Assembly: GCA_965208905.1 (NCBI GenBank)
Contig: OZ242365.1
Location: 1,856,001 to 1,920,000, forward strand
DNA length: 64,000 nt
Reading direction: 5' to 3'
Origin: Nitrosopumilaceae archaeon
GTDB taxonomy: Archaea; Thermoproteota; Nitrososphaeria; Nitrososphaerales; Nitrosopumilaceae
Every line of letters starts with the position of its first letter. Position 1 is the stretch's first letter. Positions 23,473 to 49,883 of the stretch are shown one piece after another. The notes under the pieces are model-generated. The model searched no databases, was not told where the DNA came from, and saw only the letters and a program-made list of their open reading frames with translations. The translations under genes were made by a program, and so were the position numbers.

Positions 23473-23547
23473 ATTATGTGGTTATAGAAAGGCGTAATTA
23501 TATTTTATATCGTGCAGAAGGTGTCAAGAAACGCTGACCTACACGTC

Positions 23548-24030
23548 ATGCCCGCAGGGAGCCCCATCCATGACATAAAGGAGGTGAAAGACGCCGTTGG
23601 GCTGTCAGCTAGAATCATCAGGAGGAGGCTGATGCGTCTAGAGGAGTTGGGGCTGGCAGACTACAAACGTGGAAAATTCACGATAAAAAGCGAGGTTGTA
23701 TCCCAACCGCACCATGTGCTGCGGAGCATCATCCCATCACTGATGTCGCTCAAAAAAGCCAGAAGGTTCGGTAGATATTACAAGCCTACGGATGTTAATT
23801 TTGTAAAGAAAAATCTCCCGGATGGCTCGATCATAACGCTTGACTACAAGGTTCACGAACTAACAGGATTTCAGACACCGCTGGATTTGTATGTCTATGT
23901 TGATGATATAGAAGACATCTCCAGGTTTTTGAAAAGCAATCGGTTTCGGGAGGGGCGAAAGGGCAATGTGGTACTTCTCCCAAAGATCGGCTCCTTTGAT
24001 AATTTAATTGAGAGGGCGTTCCTCGACTGG
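23548..24030 (+). pseudogene. Truncated paralog of the wHTH protein at 26259-26948
   Basis: Near-identical DNA from ~23561 to ctcgactg (24029), where a TIR replaces the 3' end. Confidence 0.88.
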
Positions 24031-24274
24031 GCTGTGATGTTATCTGCGCGTGTTGTATAACACACGCATTACACAGCTGCTACACACTTAGGCTTGCGCC
24101 CAATGCAGTAAATGTTGGTGGTGAACCACCATCCAGAGGAGTATGTGACGATACTACACACCCAGATCTTTACTCGTTTGTACTTTCCCATTGTGGACGA
24201 GTACGTGCCTTACGAACTAATTTGAATGATTCCCAACCAGATACTACGTTCAATCCCATCTATACTTGGTATAT

Positions 24275-24526
24275 TCAAACGCTTCCATACTCCGCCTTCA
24301 ACCTACGGAGATGTCTGTGCGACTCTTTTATACGGTCCTCCACATCAGAAGCCATCATCCTATATTTCACCAACTCGGCGCTCACCTGGTCAATTTCGGC
24401 AGAATCCGTCAGCATCATCTCCCGGCGCGTCAGAGCTTTGCAAAAGTCAAGAAACCCTTCCATTGTTTTTGTGTCGTCCCGTATACTACTCTCCAGTATA
24501 TGTATATCGTCGCTAAATATCGCCAA
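24275..24526 (-). CDS. Coiled-coil ORF B1, +1 frame relative to A1
   Basis: From LAIFSDD onward it aligns with B2 (IR...M...EI...L.K...H..LRRL). Start uncertain. Confidence 0.7.
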   Translation of the reverse strand: MAIFSDDIHILESSIRDDTKTMEGFLDFCKALTRREMMLTDSAEIDQVSAELVKYRMMASDVEDRIKESHRHLRRLKAEYGSV

Positions 24527-24644
24527 TGTCTCTAACTGTCTTGGCGGCGCTCTCTGCTGTCTCTGCCAATTCCGGATTGTTATTCTGTCTGGCAAGCTTG
24601 GCAAGCCTCTCAAACTTTTGCGCCCGTAGTTCATGTTGTCTCAT
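24513..24644 (-). CDS. Small ORF A1 (43 aa, not in the ORF track)
   Basis: Hand translation MRQHELRAQKFERLAKLARQNNNPELAETAESAAKTVRDIGDI*. Homologous to A2 (41427-41594), with TTTATAAA ~25 nt upstream. Confidence 0.75.
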   Translation of the reverse strand: MRQHELRAQKFERLAKLARQNNNPELAETAESAAKTVRDIGDI

Positions 24645-25081
24645 TAATAATATTATATCTCAGCATTTTATAAATATGATGATCTGTGGGTGAACTGTTC
24701 TGTATTGTACACAGCACGTCGTGTATAACGCGTATAGGTACCACATACGACTCTAACCATACGACTCTAGTGTGTAATATGACTGAGTCACCAGACAGGA
24801 CGGTTCAGTTGGGGCGCGTTATACAAGATATTTGTTGGTAGGTTGGCAGTTGTTTCAACCTACCAACGGTGTCTCTAGTCAGGTAGACATTTAGTAGTAA
24901 TAAGCTAGCCATCATATGGATGGCACGGGTCGAGGTGCCTGTCGGTGTGAGGGTTATGCGGGTCGTATTTCGTGGTCGGTAGTTGAGTGGTAATTAAACA
25001 TCACATTCAATACCGACATCTGCGCAGTAGTAGGCTGTCAAACGCGCATTATACGGCACGCGCAGATAACGTCACAGCCCA

Positions 25082-26030: not shown

Positions 26031-26258
26031 GGATGTTTTTTGCACGAATACCTTTTTGTATTAACAGTGTTCGAGCAGCGTAGATTGTGCTGTACGTTAC
26101 CATGCTTGGCGCGTGGGTAGAATCGAGACGGCCTCTGCTTTCCGATAGCAGAGGACTTCAGATGCATCTAAAGATGGCAGTTTATGATGTGCTATTTTAT
26201 ATATAAATGGAATTTTTTGTCTAAAATATATATAGTCTGCACATACTATTATTATTGC

Positions 26259-26948
26259 ATGAATGAGGATAAGTATGCATCAATGTTGAAAAGTGCAAAG
26301 GATGCAATCAGGTTTGCCCAGGAGCTGTCCCCCAGCCCAATCTATGACATACAGGAGGTGAAAGACGCCGTCGGGCTGTCAGCTAGAACTATCAGGAGGA
26401 GGCTGATGCGTCTAGAGGAGTTGGGGCTGGCAGACTACAAACGTGGAAAATTCACGATAAAAAGCGAGGTTGTATCCCAACCGCACCATGTGCTGCGGAG
26501 CATCATCCCGTCACTGGTATCGCTCAAAAAAGCCAGAAGATTTGGTAGATATTACAAGCCTACAGATATTAATTTTGTAAAGAAAAATCTCCCAGGTGGC
26601 TCGATCATAACGCTTGACTACAGGGTTCACGAACTGACAGGGTTTCAGACACCGCTGGATTTGTATGCTTATGTTGATGATATCGAAGACATCTCCAGGT
26701 TTTTGAAAAGCAATCGGTTTCGGGAGGGGAACAAGGGCAACGTGGTACTTCTCCCAAAGATCGGCTCCTTTGATAATTTAATTGAGAGGGTGTTTCTCGA
26801 CTGCGTGGCGAGCGGCGGGCGAAGTTTTCTGGATGCCGCAGCAATCATGCTGACCCATAAGGACGCGATAAAAACTAGAGTAAGGTTTGCAGGAGACACC
26901 ATATGGAAGGTGCAGGAGGACATGTTGCGAAATGATGCCACTCATTAG
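26259..26948 (+). CDS. wHTH-containing protein, putative AbiEi-like (type IV TA) antitoxin
   Basis: HTH VKDAVGLSARTIRRRLMRLEELGL and C-terminal IERVFLDC. It overlaps a nucleotidyltransferase gene. Confidence 0.6.
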   Translation: MNEDKYASMLKSAKDAIRFAQELSPSPIYDIQEVKDAVGLSARTIRRRLMRLEELGLADYKRGKFTIKSEVVSQPHHVLRSIIPSLVSLKKARRFGRYYKPTDINFVKKNLPGGSIITLDYRVHELTGFQTPLDLYAYVDDIEDISRFLKSNRFREGNKGNVVLLPKIGSFDNLIERVFLDCVASGGRSFLDAAAIMLTHKDAIKTRVRFAGDTIWKVQEDMLRNDATH

Positions 26949-27438
26949 AGAAGCTGTTTGTATTTCCCGGGATTTTGGAACTACTACGTTTGTCGGGGCG
27001 GTTGCAGTCACACTGCATACTGGCGAGCAGCGGCAATCCATGGATTTGGATTTTGCCGTTGCCGAGCAGATAACAAGCGATGAGCTTTTGGACAAGGGAT
27101 ACACAGTCGACCAGTACAGTGGTAAAAAATTTACGCCAAGGGGGTACAAGATTGACGTGTATGAAAAACGAGACTTGAATAATATTCCGCTGAAGTACAT
27201 CATAAAAACGGCAGTGGCAATCCCGGTGGACAAGAAAGGAACCGCAGTCAACGTCATCACATTGGAAGGATTGGTCATTACAAAGTTTAGGGCAGGACGT
27301 GATCAGGACATCGAAGACCTCCGAAGGCTGGCAGTTCGCTGCAGGTCAAAAATTAACTGGAATGAAATCAGGCACCTTGCCAAGTCCGATATGGAATACT
27401 CGCAAATAGAGCAGGCCCTACGCCTTTATGCAGCCTGA
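26932..27438 (+). CDS. Nucleotidyltransferase (AbiEii-like putative toxin)
   Basis: VGAVAV...RQSMDLDF and LVITKFRAGRDQDIEDL. Confidence 0.8.
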   Translation: MMPLIREAVCISRDFGTTTFVGAVAVTLHTGEQRQSMDLDFAVAEQITSDELLDKGYTVDQYSGKKFTPRGYKIDVYEKRDLNNIPLKYIIKTAVAIPVDKKGTAVNVITLEGLVITKFRAGRDQDIEDLRRLAVRCRSKINWNEIRHLAKSDMEYSQIEQALRLYAA

Positions 27439-39573: not shown

Positions 39574-41041
39574 TGGGAATTATATACAAAAGTACACAGC
39601 TTCGGCTGTACACTCATGCCTTTTCTGACGACTTCGTTGTATGGAGTGGAGCATAGAAGGTGTTGGCTTGTAGTCCTCCTTATGCCCCGGCCGTCTTAGG
39701 ACGACGTTCCCCGCCGCCCTATACAGAATATTCCAGGCGGCATTGACATCCGCGTGGAATACCCTGGTACAATTAGTGCAAATGAATTTGTCGCGTGTGA
39801 CACGCGACTTAGCATCCACCGTACCACACACATGGCACGTCTGGCTCGTATATTTGGCCGATGCCCCCAACAGCGGTATGTTGTGCATCTCACACCACTG
39901 CGCAAGCTTGCGCAGGAACTCCCCAACATGGTTCTCCCGCATTGAACGGTTCATAGCGCGTTTGTAATTCCCGCCATGTGTGGTCATATCCTTTACGGAG
40001 AGCGATTCGACCACGACTGCGTCCATGCCATTAGTTATCTGCGCAATCGTCTGATTTATGGTGTTCGCAGCTATGTTGTTGGCCTTCCTGTATAGCCGCT
40101 TTATTTGATCATTCAATATATGCCACTTCCGGCCATGCCGTGTCTTGCGGTCGCGCAAACTCTTGAGAGCGTCAATCTCCCGCAGGATTGCTCTATGGCG
40201 GGTGTTGTGTATTGTGACGTTGCCGTCCGTATCTACCGTGACGGCGAGATGCTTGCCGCCCACATCAACGCCACGCATTACACCCGTAGTATGGTGCAGC
40301 TCGATCGGTATGCGTAACGCTATGTGCAGCTCAAACATGTGGTCGGACGGTTTGGTATGTTTAGTCACCTTCTTGGTGACATCGACTATCCTAAATGACC
40401 GCATGTCCCATGTTTTATAAATGGGTTTTGCGATCTCCACTGTACCGTAGCCGGAGATATGTACGGTGTGATCACCCTTCCGTACAGGCGGTGTAACGGA
40501 ACTAAGTATGATGCGGTCGTCTTTGCGGCGGTATGGCGCATGGCCGGAGTTGTCATCCATGACTCTCCTACATGCGACGGATGCATCTTGTATGGCGCCC
40601 CTGCCAAACACCATAGGCAAGTCAGATACCCATGCATGTTCAGCGCGCCACTCCGTAAGCTGCTTGAACATGCCGTACTTTAATGCTATCTTTGACGGCC
40701 CAAAATCATATGTATGGTAGTCATCGTCCAGCATACCTGATGTAAAATCCAGCTTGCCCGGTAGTTTGAAGGACTGCAGGATGTCCACTACCACCCTCTC
40801 CATATATTCGCCACCAAACAAATACTCTGATACGGCGCGGTTGTATGCATATCTTGACGCATGATTCGTGCGGTGCACCCACTCTGCAAACAACACATCC
40901 CTCCGTAGCGGTACCTTAACTATCCGTATCATAATATATAATACGGTATACTAGTATTTAAGGGGAGTTGTATGGACGCGATCCGTGGTTCAGGCATTAA
41001 CTCTCAGAATCGGGGTTGTGTACTTTTGTATACGATTCCCA
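39574..41041 (-). mobile_element. TnpB-only element bounded by 31-bp terminal inverted repeats
   Basis: 39574-39604 matches the reverse complement of 41011-41041 at 26/31. Confidence 0.75.
39580..40932 (-). CDS. tnpB: RNA-guided endonuclease TnpB
   Basis: RuvC-I GVDVG, RuvC-II VVESL, zinc finger TSQTCHVC...CTNC, RuvC-III HADVNAAWNI. Confidence 0.93.
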   Translation of the reverse strand: MIRIVKVPLRRDVLFAEWVHRTNHASRYAYNRAVSEYLFGGEYMERVVVDILQSFKLPGKLDFTSGMLDDDYHTYDFGPSKIALKYGMFKQLTEWRAEHAWVSDLPMVFGRGAIQDASVACRRVMDDNSGHAPYRRKDDRIILSSVTPPVRKGDHTVHISGYGTVEIAKPIYKTWDMRSFRIVDVTKKVTKHTKPSDHMFELHIALRIPIELHHTTGVMRGVDVGGKHLAVTVDTDGNVTIHNTRHRAILREIDALKSLRDRKTRHGRKWHILNDQIKRLYRKANNIAANTINQTIAQITNGMDAVVVESLSVKDMTTHGGNYKRAMNRSMRENHVGEFLRKLAQWCEMHNIPLLGASAKYTSQTCHVCGTVDAKSRVTRDKFICTNCTRVFHADVNAAWNILYRAAGNVVLRRPGHKEDYKPTPSMLHSIQRSRQKRHECTAEAVYFCI

Positions 41042-41209
41042 ATATTATTGTACAAGGTGTATCGACAAGTCTGCCATGGAAGGTGTCAAGACACGGTGAC
41101 CTATAAGAATCTGTCAAAAAAGTGACCTGCACCAAACTTGACAACCATCTCCACACGAGGTTACCTTTTTGGCAATTCCTCACAGGTTACCATACATGTC
41201 TTATACCGG

Positions 41210-41467
41210 CTAAGTTGAATCCCGTAACCCTTCCAACCGACGTAATTCATCATGAAGTAGTCTAATTACATGTTCATCATTTTTTACAAAATTCTTGCAT
41301 TTGGCGAGATCTTGCCTGTGATCTATTATTTCATCATACTTCTCGGATATTATGGCGGCAACCTCATCACATTTTTTGATATCTTCTTTTATTTTATGGA
41401 GCATGCGGTTCAGATGTTGGCGTATCTTAGTAATCTTCTCCGAAAGCTCGTCTGAAATCTTCTCCAA
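41210..41467 (-). CDS. Coiled-coil ORF B2, +1 frame relative to A2
   Basis: LEKISDEL...HDELRRL aligns with B1. There is no ATG upstream of the homologous part. Confidence 0.7.
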   Translation of the reverse strand: MEKISDELSEKITKIRQHLNRMLHKIKEDIKKCDEVAAIISEKYDEIIDHRQDLAKCKNFVKNDEHVIRLLHDELRRLEGLRDST

Positions 41468-41594
41468 CCTCTCGTACGAGCGCTGCACAACCACGTATCT
41501 GCTCAGCAAGACCCTCGGCTTCCGGTATATTGCGTGCCTCTATAGCGTCTGCCCTTCTCTCAAAATCACTCGCATATCTCTCTATCTCACTCAT
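41427..41594 (-). CDS. Small ORF A2 (55 aa, not in the ORF track)
   Basis: Hand translation MSEIERYASDFERRADAIEARNIPEAEGLAEQIRGCAALVREVGEDFRRAFGEDY*. Homologous to A1. Confidence 0.75.
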   Translation of the reverse strand: MSEIERYASDFERRADAIEARNIPEAEGLAEQIRGCAALVREVGEDFRRAFGEDY

Positions 41595-42010
41595 ACATTA
41601 CATATACCCACTATAACATAAAAACCATCACGCCGACACGGGACTGGTAAGAAGTGCTGACCTTCGTATGGTTGGAAAAGATCTAACGTCTGATTAGAAA
41701 GTTTGTAACCTGATGTATGGTACGCTCCGACCCGTTTCTGCCCCCACTAGGCACTACCTGAATTTCCACACCGAGTCACTTTTTTGACAGTTACTCATAG
41801 GTCACCATGTCTTGACACCGCCCTTGACACGGGTATGATTCTCCCTGTGGTTGGAGCAACCCTTTCTGGTACGCGGAAGGCTCATTATATCCCTCTGGAT
41901 GGTAGAAACACCAACAGCGTGTTATGTGTTTCAGATCGCTTGAAAGTGGTTTGATTACGCATAAACTCTACTCCTAAATCCTTAAAGCAAGTATGTAATT
42001 ATAGACAGAC

Positions 42011-49491: not shown

Positions 49492-49800
49492 CTACCTGGT
49501 GATAAACATGGCACCCACCAGTACCAGCGGTCCCGGTTTTTCATCTGTCCCGCCAGGCCTATCGTCTCCAACCCCTATATCTTCACCAATTTTCTTGATC
49601 TCTGATGCCAGTGACATTATATCATGGTCTGTATCATAGTCATCCAGCATATCCTCCAGGCGTTCCACCCACTGCCGTAGATCCGCCGACTTCAGTATGT
49701 GGTCGACTGTCTCGGCCTTCTCCAGTGTAAGGCCACCCATATCCATCTCATTGACCAATATCTCCTGAATGCGCATGATTGCCTTCTCTGCCTTTTTTGT
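49492..49800 (-). pseudogene. Acidic helical protein fragment, probably 5'-truncated by the TIR at 49800
   Basis: The frame stays open (PTKKAEKAIMRIQE) up to the TIR. Confidence 0.45.
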
Positions 49801-49883
49801 GGGCTGTGACGTTATCTGCGCGTGTCATAACAGCGCGTATTTGACACAACTGCTATACAGTTGGACTTGTGCCCAATACAGCA
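49800..49883. mobile_element. Solo left end of the TGGGCTGTGA-TIR element family
   Basis: Aligns with 24028-24110 over ~80 bp. No partner end found in the window. Confidence 0.8.

Follow-up and report, generated by a model that had tools for sequence, protein, structure and literature searches.

Two short loci on the minus strand of a 64,000-nucleotide stretch of DNA from a Nitrosopumilaceae archaeon each consist of a small open reading frame (ORF), which we call A, followed by a second open stretch, which we call B, in the +1 frame relative to A. The question raised by these loci is whether ribosomes change frame at the junction and make one protein from both parts, or whether A and B are two overlapping genes. 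The stretch (the window) comprises bases 1856001-1920000 of a single-contig genome of 2.21 Mb with 45.6% G+C. We found that A and B make up a previously undescribed, genus-restricted, multi-copy family that is real and conserved, more than chance would give. The two-part architecture is conserved, the frame switch lies at the stop codon of A, and that stop is under selection. We lean, with limited confidence, toward an overlapping bicistronic module in which A and B are probably coupled in translation. The separate initiation of B, the coupling and the function of the module are matters of probability, argued below from sequence.

A family with one frame relationship

In the ORF list, the A gene of locus 1 (A1) is a 43-amino-acid (aa) ATG ORF (24513-24644, minus strand, stop included), and that of locus 2 (A2) is a 55-aa ATG ORF (41427-41594, minus strand, stop included). 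The downstream +1 frame is open at both loci, over 24275-24634 (119 aa) and 41210-41509 (99 aa). The initial annotation of the window had given these ORFs, the open +1 frames and the junction sequences correctly, and had proposed that both halves are homologous between the two loci. For A this was borne out by pairwise BLASTP (17/45 identities, E 5e-6). For B the same comparison was not significant (E 5.1), and the relationship emerged only when a profile of locus-1-type B was compared with a profile of 16 other B sequences (hhalign probability 68.8%, E 4.5e-5, 41 collinear columns).

A tblastn search of the whole genome with four queries, the A and B pieces of the two loci, detected a third copy (locus 3) at ~713.8 kb, again with A followed by the +1 frame and with no T run at the junction. 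We then searched relatives, 61 genomes first and afterwards, with the B profile, 401 genomes of the taxonomic family. Strong B-profile matches were confined to four of the ten genomes of the window's genus (G000, G001, G005 and G006). In the 391 genomes outside the genus there were weak matches only, in 17 genomes (E 7e-5 to 0.01), and 11 of the 17 matches were in open frames of 347-383 aa. The one that was inspected (L027:1432-2478, minus strand) is a 348-aa AbrB(MazE-like)+PhoU protein, with the B profile aligning to its C-terminal helices. Because none of the 16 B sequences matched the PhoU model, we treated the matches outside the genus as noise, and they are probably nothing but similarity between helices.

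Reading 23 places in all three frames gave one unrelated sequence, four remnants and 18 copies that could be delimited by the start of A and the end of B. The total length was 1 mod 3 in all 18 delimited copies, from four genomes, which is an invariant +1 offset of B relative to A. B was truncated in two of these copies, and its end was divergent in one (G000, ~71 kb). A ranges from 43 to 64 aa and B from about 70 to 85 aa. Genomes with the family have 3-9 diverged copies each, and there are at least 12 subfamilies, with protein identities down to ~20-30%.

Members were also recovered from protein databases. A word-indexed search with the read-through alignment returned 18 proteins (five A-only, ten B-only and three in-frame forms). 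An exhaustive profile search of 1.84 billion representatives returned 28 clusters at E ≤0.001, most of them B-only ORFs of 43-94 aa. The two sets of returns overlap, and their members all come from the same kind of source. The sequencing runs that contain locus 2 are sponge, coral and marine metagenomes. In Joint Genome Institute (JGI) metagenome contigs, a scan with the A profile gave 597 pattern matches, none of which was confirmed, and the junction DNA motif gave 54 matches, none encoding A or B by hmmsearch. Current gene callers treat the family inconsistently, giving A long false N-terminal extensions and B various starts or an internal Met. A full-text literature search on archaeal recoding found no mention of the family, although that search was limited and absence from print cannot be claimed.

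The two frames could conceivably reflect sequencing or assembly errors, or dead genes whose frames merely look conserved. Several copies are clearly decayed (G000 ~597 kb and ~2006 kb; G005 ~1454 kb; G006 ~573 kb and ~649 kb; G001 ~337 kb). In addition, a nonsense change interrupts B at locus 2 in one metagenome run, and the short-term changes in locus 2 B among the metagenome assemblies were 4 synonymous and 7 nonsynonymous. These observations speak for error or decay. Against it, the same +1 offset recurs in 18 of 18 copies, across four genomes and at least 12 subfamilies. Locus 2 was found in four independent metagenome assemblies (X5, X8, X10 and X12) with 15 substitutions within the gene and no insertion or deletion, and both frames have a codon-phase signal and an excess of synonymous changes (see below). 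For the family as a whole, artifact or decay is effectively refuted, and we regard it as highly improbable. A simple sequencing error or homopolymer slip is ruled out by the same offset and assemblies, together with the lack of a run at most junctions; the earlier view that the loci do not represent two sequencing errors was thus correct.

The junction at the stop codon of A

When the family was aligned, the frame switch fell at A's stop codon. The tail of A has the consensus ...[K/R]-D-[D/G]-[F/L]-[R/K]-[R/K]-x-G-E-x-[I/V], followed by the stop. In 16 of the 18 copies the stop (TAG or TAA) is at the same aligned codon, after a G-x-x-[I/V/Y/L] end. The junction contexts are ATC TAG G (five copies), GTC TAG G (five), GTC TAA G (two), ATC TAA A (one), CTC TAA A (one), TAC TAA G (locus 2) and ATT TAG C (locus 1). 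In one subfamily (ATC GAG ACT TGA G) the stop comes two codons further downstream. Locus 3 (ATC CAA G) has a sense codon, CAA, in this place, and A ends there 13 codons further on. In most copies GGAG lies 5 nucleotides (nt) 5' of the last sense codon; two subfamilies and locus 1 have GGC. The 3' end of 16S rRNA carries CCUCC, which could pair with GGAG, and the GGAG bases also encode the conserved Gly-Glu.

This alignment changed the location and the nature of the proposed site. The junction of locus 2 had been aligned at GAT TTC, which is eight codons too early; the true site is GAT TAC TAA G, matching GAT ATT TAG C of locus 1. Locus 2 carries GGAGAAGAT twice, as a direct repeat, and this duplication misled the earlier hand alignment. 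Slippage over an ATTT run, one of the mechanisms suggested initially, does not fit the family, since a T run is missing from most copies (GAC ATC TAG GCT is one example) and the conserved feature is the stop of A.

We determined which frame is under selection from the minimum number of changes at A-frame codon positions 1/2/3 in the 11 copies with an ungapped tail. Over the 30 nt that precede the overlap the counts were 12/9/23; they were 10/6/12 across the final 33 nt of A, and 20/15/12 for each of the two 30-nt blocks beyond the stop. The most variable site was the A-frame third position before the stop and the +1-frame third position after it; the selected frame switches from A to B at A's stop. 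Comparison of two orthologs (G005 ~223 kb and G006 ~413 kb) gave 15 synonymous and 8 nonsynonymous changes in A, and 25 and 15 in B. The same pair, 18% diverged overall, had one change in 36 nt around the overlap, and conservation within the gene is highest over the ~20 nt leading to the stop. The phase counts and the synonymous excess in ortholog pairs uphold the earlier claim that both halves are under selection.

Codon choice around the junction was unusual. In five GC-rich subfamilies the B frame crosses the stop as TCT-AGG. Outside this site, TCT makes up 4 of the 59 Ser codons in these genes, and AGR accounts for 25% of the Arg codons. The Gly before the stop is GGA in five of seven subfamilies, compared with 17% of Gly codons elsewhere in GC-rich members (8/47) and 22% across all members (15/67). 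Because the rare codons TCT, AGG and GGA are found there, we conclude that A's stop is under selection. Every GC-rich copy has C as the third base of the last sense codon. All eight subfamilies with a Phe 24 nt before the stop encode it by TTC, compared with 7 of 24 elsewhere in these genes, so that silent-site constraint reaches well past a short shift cassette.

A conserved, selected stop at a change of frame is a reason to consider programmed +1 frameshifting. In that case the stop would be in the ribosomal A site, its T would be skipped, and an A-B protein of ~120-130 aa would be made beside short A. There would be no re-pairing in the P site, and GGAG would stimulate the shift as an internal Shine-Dalgarno-like element, in the manner of bacterial prfB. 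We consider this rather unlikely, although several results favor it. The +1 offset is invariant (18/18), the stop is held at one aligned codon (16/18) by rare other-frame codons (TCT and AGG) with GGA over-used for Gly, and the selected frame changes exactly at the stop, next to the most conserved ~20 nt (with 1 change in 36 nt around the overlap). The stop is selected much more strongly than the B start, and the GGAG before the site could pair with the CCUCC of 16S rRNA.

A/B resembles prfB in having a zero-frame stop at the switch, a +1 downstream frame, GGAG a few bases upstream in most copies, and its strongest DNA conservation at the site. At the prfB site, CUU UGA C, the shift codon does not vary, and the P-site tRNA pairs again in the +1 frame. 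In A/B, by contrast, the last sense codons vary (ATC, GTC, CTC, TAC, ATT and ACT) and none of their tRNAs could re-pair with the corresponding +1 codons (TCT, ACT, TTT and CTT), which makes slippage mechanistically unattractive. Also unlike prfB, two subfamilies have no stop at the site (CAA at locus 3, and TGA two codons later in the other), and the downstream start is mostly kept. The synonymous constraint at TTC and GAT, 24-30 nt upstream of the stop, is beyond the reach of a shift cassette and is a further point against a frameshift.

Natural in-frame forms can be read either way. P0005 and P0006 are proteins of 108 aa, 89% identical to each other, that read ...R-I-G and then K-S-R-L-K-R.... 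They join A and B 2-3 codons before the stop and have diverged by 11% with the ORF intact, in favor of a fused product. They would be the product expected of a 4-nt deletion in the GGAGAGAAAG stretch. Among the returns of the two protein searches (18 and 28) there are three in-frame clusters with three different breakpoints, and two of these (P0021 and P0042) resemble secondary frameshift damage; this weighs against frameshifting, as does the existence of B-only forms with a foreign N terminus (P0013 and P0016).

Published cases give a mixed picture. In Antonov et al. 2013 (PMC3711429), a programmed site is recognized by at least five cluster members and a conserved site, and this family has both. 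The B ATG, 29 nt from the stop, is outside the 10-20 nt window for coupling given there, which likewise favors a frameshift. On the other side, the family is confined to one genus, which the same paper treats as a feature of pseudogene type. According to a 2021 review (PMC8211752), fucA1 of Saccharolobus solfataricus, a -1 shift, is the sole demonstrated archaeal frameshift, a +1 event has been suggested for a haloarchaeal virus and a shift for Mg chelatase, and no +1 shift has been demonstrated in a cellular archaeal gene. Like A/B, fucA1 is an archaeal gene in two overlapping ORFs (its overlap is 40 bases; PMC8211752). Unlike A/B, it shifts -1 on an A-AAA-AAT heptamer and has full-length in-frame homologs, whereas A/B has a +1 offset, no slippery heptamer, and relatives that are nearly all split.

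A general tendency of this genome to shift +1 at stops was checked on the split gene of cytochrome oxidase subunit II, which lies outside the window (C1:249646-250330; L114:147-831, minus strand) and consists of ORFs of 83 and 156 aa. The subunit is split in all six genomes of the genus that were inspected, with varied offsets: the same frame, with a stop and then an ATG, in G006 and G001; -1 in G009 and G004; and +1 in G000 and G005. This split is ordinary conserved gene fission, giving two genes with no recoding.

Probable initiation of B within the tail of A

The initial annotation had offered, as its other reading, a coupled gene pair with B starting at an aligned TTG. In general terms this is the reading that we favor, with start codons that differ from the one proposed. 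Overlapping co-directional pairs of small genes are common, and conserved frameshifting is rare. As we picture it, A and B would be two small genes read from one transcript, whose A message is probably leaderless, behind a conserved TATA-like box. B would begin at its own start codon within the tail of A, in the +1 frame, with an overlap of roughly 10-60 nt. This start would be an ATG in most GC-rich copies, 29 nt 5' of the stop of A; the other copies would use a nearby TTG, GTG or ATG.

The region upstream of A is consistent with a single promoter. An AT-rich box (TTTATTA or similar) was present 20-25 nt before the ATG of A in all 18 upstream regions, and a TATA-like box precedes A only. Most members also have an [A/G]AACC motif ~20 nt 5' of the box, ~45-50 nt 5' of the ATG (L045, L055 and L058). 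These arrangements suggest that the A message is leaderless and that the members share a site for a regulator.

Of 12 subfamily representatives, 11 have an ATG, GTG or TTG in the B frame that is no more than 15 codons from the junction and is not followed by a stop, a point against frameshifting. The Asp codon of the D-[D/G] motif is GAT in six of the seven subfamilies that have it, and this creates the ATG at 29 nt from the stop; in the seventh the codon is GAC, and a TTG follows two codons on. Many database B proteins (50%-identity clusters) start with M-T-S or M-V-S at that ATG, although gene callers' need for a start biases this count. At locus 3 the stop of A was lost through a TCT to TCC change that is synonymous in B. 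A is extended there by 13 codons and the B frame is still family-like, a pattern that fits a separately read B.

Candidate starts are also present at the two loci of the window. The B frame of locus 2 has its longest ORF from TTG 41509, and candidate starts are GTG 41486-41488 and TTG 41465-41467. A 92-aa protein from a related genome (P0004), 94% identical to B of locus 2, is called from the GTG. At locus 1 the candidate start is TTG 24524-24526, three codons 5' of the junction, and an 81-aa protein (P0034) that is 78% identical to this B has its called start two codons before the junction. The TTG that had been proposed as a common start is TGG in run X10 (a synonymous change in A) and in P0004, and is absent from locus 3 and most copies, so it was abandoned.

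Coupling might operate through RNA structure. RNAalifold predicted a 9-pair hairpin in which the arm that contains the AUG of B pairs with the last codons of A and the U of its stop. In this weak hairpin, a ribosome finishing A would hold the 3' arm and free the start of B, and if real this would explain why the distance from ATG to stop is kept. Of the alignment cells, 91% were paired, compared with 40-59% when the partner was slid, and there was one compensatory change (U-A to C-G), in the subfamily with ACG in place of AUG.

Several observations count against separate, coupled initiation. The hairpin is weak (folding term -4.7 kcal/mol), and the alignment that yielded it is the one on which it was assessed. 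Some copies have a different minimum-energy fold, and 44 of 500 shuffles paired as well as the real sequences. Synonymous resampling of the A tail gave an expected B start in 46-97% of cases per gene; the enrichment of starts is weak (P = 0.038), because the composition of the A tail makes +1-frame starts likely anyway. The position of the B start is not conserved across subfamilies, and most copies lack a convincing Shine-Dalgarno sequence at a suitable spacing (some have GGGAG or GGGAA 8 nt upstream). Selection on the stop far exceeds what a two-gene model strictly requires. Natural in-frame A-B fusions occur (P0005/P0006, P0042 and P0021), and searches of Pfam, PADLOC and NCBIfam revealed no homology to any toxin or antitoxin family. 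Finally, an intact-looking copy at ~1.2 Mb of G005 has a B-frame TGA and then no ATG, GTG or TTG for ~35 codons of conserved B. Its database counterpart (P0037) begins at an internal Met. This copy, having no canonical B start, is also a point for frameshifting.

That copy bears on a third possibility, in which the ribosome ends A, is kept on the mRNA by GGAG, and restarts at B near the stop or at a near-cognate codon, or in which a separate B and a minor fused product are both made. Such non-canonical reinitiation would reconcile the strongly selected stop with the start-less copy, whose B frame contains ATT and ATA codons, and Antonov et al. (PMC3711429) report clusters with both frameshifting and coupling. 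There is, however, no conserved start-like B-frame codon within a few bases of the stop, and we think this possibility improbable, more so than a frameshift.

Proteins, cassettes and what the module may be

A helical hairpin is predicted for the A protein, which is acidic. B of one copy was predicted by AlphaFold2 as a single helix of residues 2-79 (predicted local distance difference test score (pLDDT) 95.7, predicted template-modeling score (pTM) 0.55), and B is thus predicted to be a long charged helix that forms coiled coils. The fusion P0006 was predicted, with low confidence (pLDDT 58.8), as four helices (residues 4-21, 24-47, 49-83 and 85-107) with a break at the junction Gly. Prediction of a complex of A with B gave a score of 0.16, against a mark of 0.32. 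No match of the A/B family was above cut-off in Pfam, NCBIfam or PADLOC, the best matches in a PDB profile search were designed antiparallel coiled coils only, with no relative, and an ESM Atlas search returned coiled-coil noise or nothing. The features of the two loci are listed in Table 1.

Table 1. Features of loci 1 and 2, in window coordinates
Feature	Position	Strand	Description
Locus 2 gene A	41430..41594	-	55 codons; TAA stop at 41427-41429; from the ORF list and A-family alignment; selection acts on the A frame as far as the stop
Locus 2 B frame (+1 relative to A)	41210..41428	-	Begins at the base 3' of the T in A's stop and ends at a TAG stop
Locus 2 overlap zone, both frames open	41427..41488	-	Contains the repeated GGAGAAGAT motif (direct repeat) and A's stop
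Locus 2 TATA-like box	41612..41624	-	~20 nt 5' of the A2 ATG; TTTATTA-like in all members; putative promoter element
Locus 2 cassette, left arm of 55-nt inverted repeat	41072..41126	.	758-bp cassette; arms 85% complementary
Locus 2 cassette, right arm of 55-nt inverted repeat	41775..41829	.	From repeat search
Locus 1 gene A	24516..24644	-	43 codons; TAG stop at 24513-24515
Locus 1 B frame (+1)	24275..24514	-	79 codons and stop; the frame happens to be open up to 24634
Locus 1 TATA-like box (TTTATAAAA)	24666..24674	-	22 nt 5' of the A1 ATG; putative function
Locus 1 cassette, left terminal inverted repeat	24028..24073	.	46-nt arm; 1054-bp cassette
Locus 1 cassette, right terminal inverted repeat	25036..25081	.	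46-nt arm

Loci 1 and 2 resemble the cargo of mobile insertion cassettes or elements of the kind of miniature inverted-repeat transposable elements (MITEs), being in short elements with 46-55-nt inverted repeats and, at locus 1, with the ends of TnpB elements. The outer 25 nt of the locus 1 repeat are identical to the ends of two 1.45-kb TnpB-only elements elsewhere in the genome, and whatever moves those ends appears also to have moved the locus 1 A/B cassette. The two elements (C1:250605-252075 and 2209813-2211265) encode TnpB-like proteins of 432-435 aa, and a solo repeat is found at 49800-49825 of the window. The 55-nt repeat of locus 2 has one further solo copy in the genome. Unlike such cassettes, most other A/B copies are without flanking repeats, and by eye no direct repeat indicative of a target-site duplication was found at the four ends of the two cassettes. 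The initial annotation had placed both copies in elements bounded by inverted repeats, which is true of loci 1 and 2; at 19 of 20 other places tested there was no flanking inverted repeat, and the remaining one had an 18-nt pair (G006 ~571 kb). Because the repeats are lacking at most copies, the A/B module is not itself defined by such ends.

Contig depth rose several-fold at 41000-41040 and 41837-41900 of the window in four metagenome assemblies, and many contigs broke at 41039-41044 and 41823. The DNA on either side of the locus 2 cassette is therefore itself a repeat with many copies, and the surroundings of the cassette differ between strains. Directly downstream of this cassette, on the same strand, is a 450-aa TnpB-like gene (39580-40932, minus strand) with OrfB_IS605 and Cas12f1-like TNB domains (Pfam). 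At 26184-27438 and 23512-24060 (both plus strand) there are a gene for a 254-aa protein, followed by an overlapping gene for a 183-aa nucleotidyltransferase (DUF6036, weak AbiEii match), and, adjoining locus 1, a truncated duplicate of the first of these genes. Locus 3 adjoins a TrmB-like 213-aa gene and a 250-aa gene (L001:5857-7273, minus strand). It is possible that there are AbiE-like modules beside A/B copies. An H+-pyrophosphatase gene (L025:1347-3213 and L052; G006 ~571-574 kb) lies between two A/B copies, one intact and the other decayed and inverted. There was no recurring neighbor gene when ORFs of at least 80 aa around 22 places were clustered and 14 neighbors were searched against Pfam.

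Type II toxin-antitoxin operons, which the initial annotation had named as an example of a coupled pair, share several features with A/B. Both have two short, co-directional, overlapping genes behind one promoter, with the upstream product smaller and acidic, and both evolve rapidly and are patchily distributed, with diverged or decayed copies in mobile cassettes and near insertion sequence (IS)/TnpB and AbiE-like genes. There are differences as well. A and B have no similarity to any toxin, antitoxin or defense family, and B is predicted to be a long helix and not an enzyme fold. The overlap, 32 nt in most GC-rich copies, is long and its sequence hardly varies, the stop of A is unusually strongly selected, and there are B-only forms, which would be unexpected for a toxin. 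Our guess is that the module is a selfish pair, of the addiction (toxin-antitoxin-like) type or otherwise associated with mobile elements, because of its patchy spread, the 3-9 copies per genome, the decay, the two copies carried as cassette cargo and the fast protein evolution.

If a +1 frameshift proved true, it would be the first conserved case in a cellular archaeal gene, as far as the 2021 review goes (PMC8211752). More than 16 natural variant sites would then be at hand for studying how the archaeal ribosome chooses between termination and a forward shift, and the differences among them (in last sense codons, in TAG, TAA or TGA, and in loss of the stop or the start) would be a ready-made mutational series. 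If A and B are instead a coupled pair, they would be an undescribed, lineage-specific module of small proteins in the mobile gene pool of sponge-associated ammonia-oxidizing archaea. The pair would provide a clean case of an almost invariant 32-nt dual-coding overlap with a selected upstream stop, and a good model for translational coupling behind a leaderless first cistron in Archaea.

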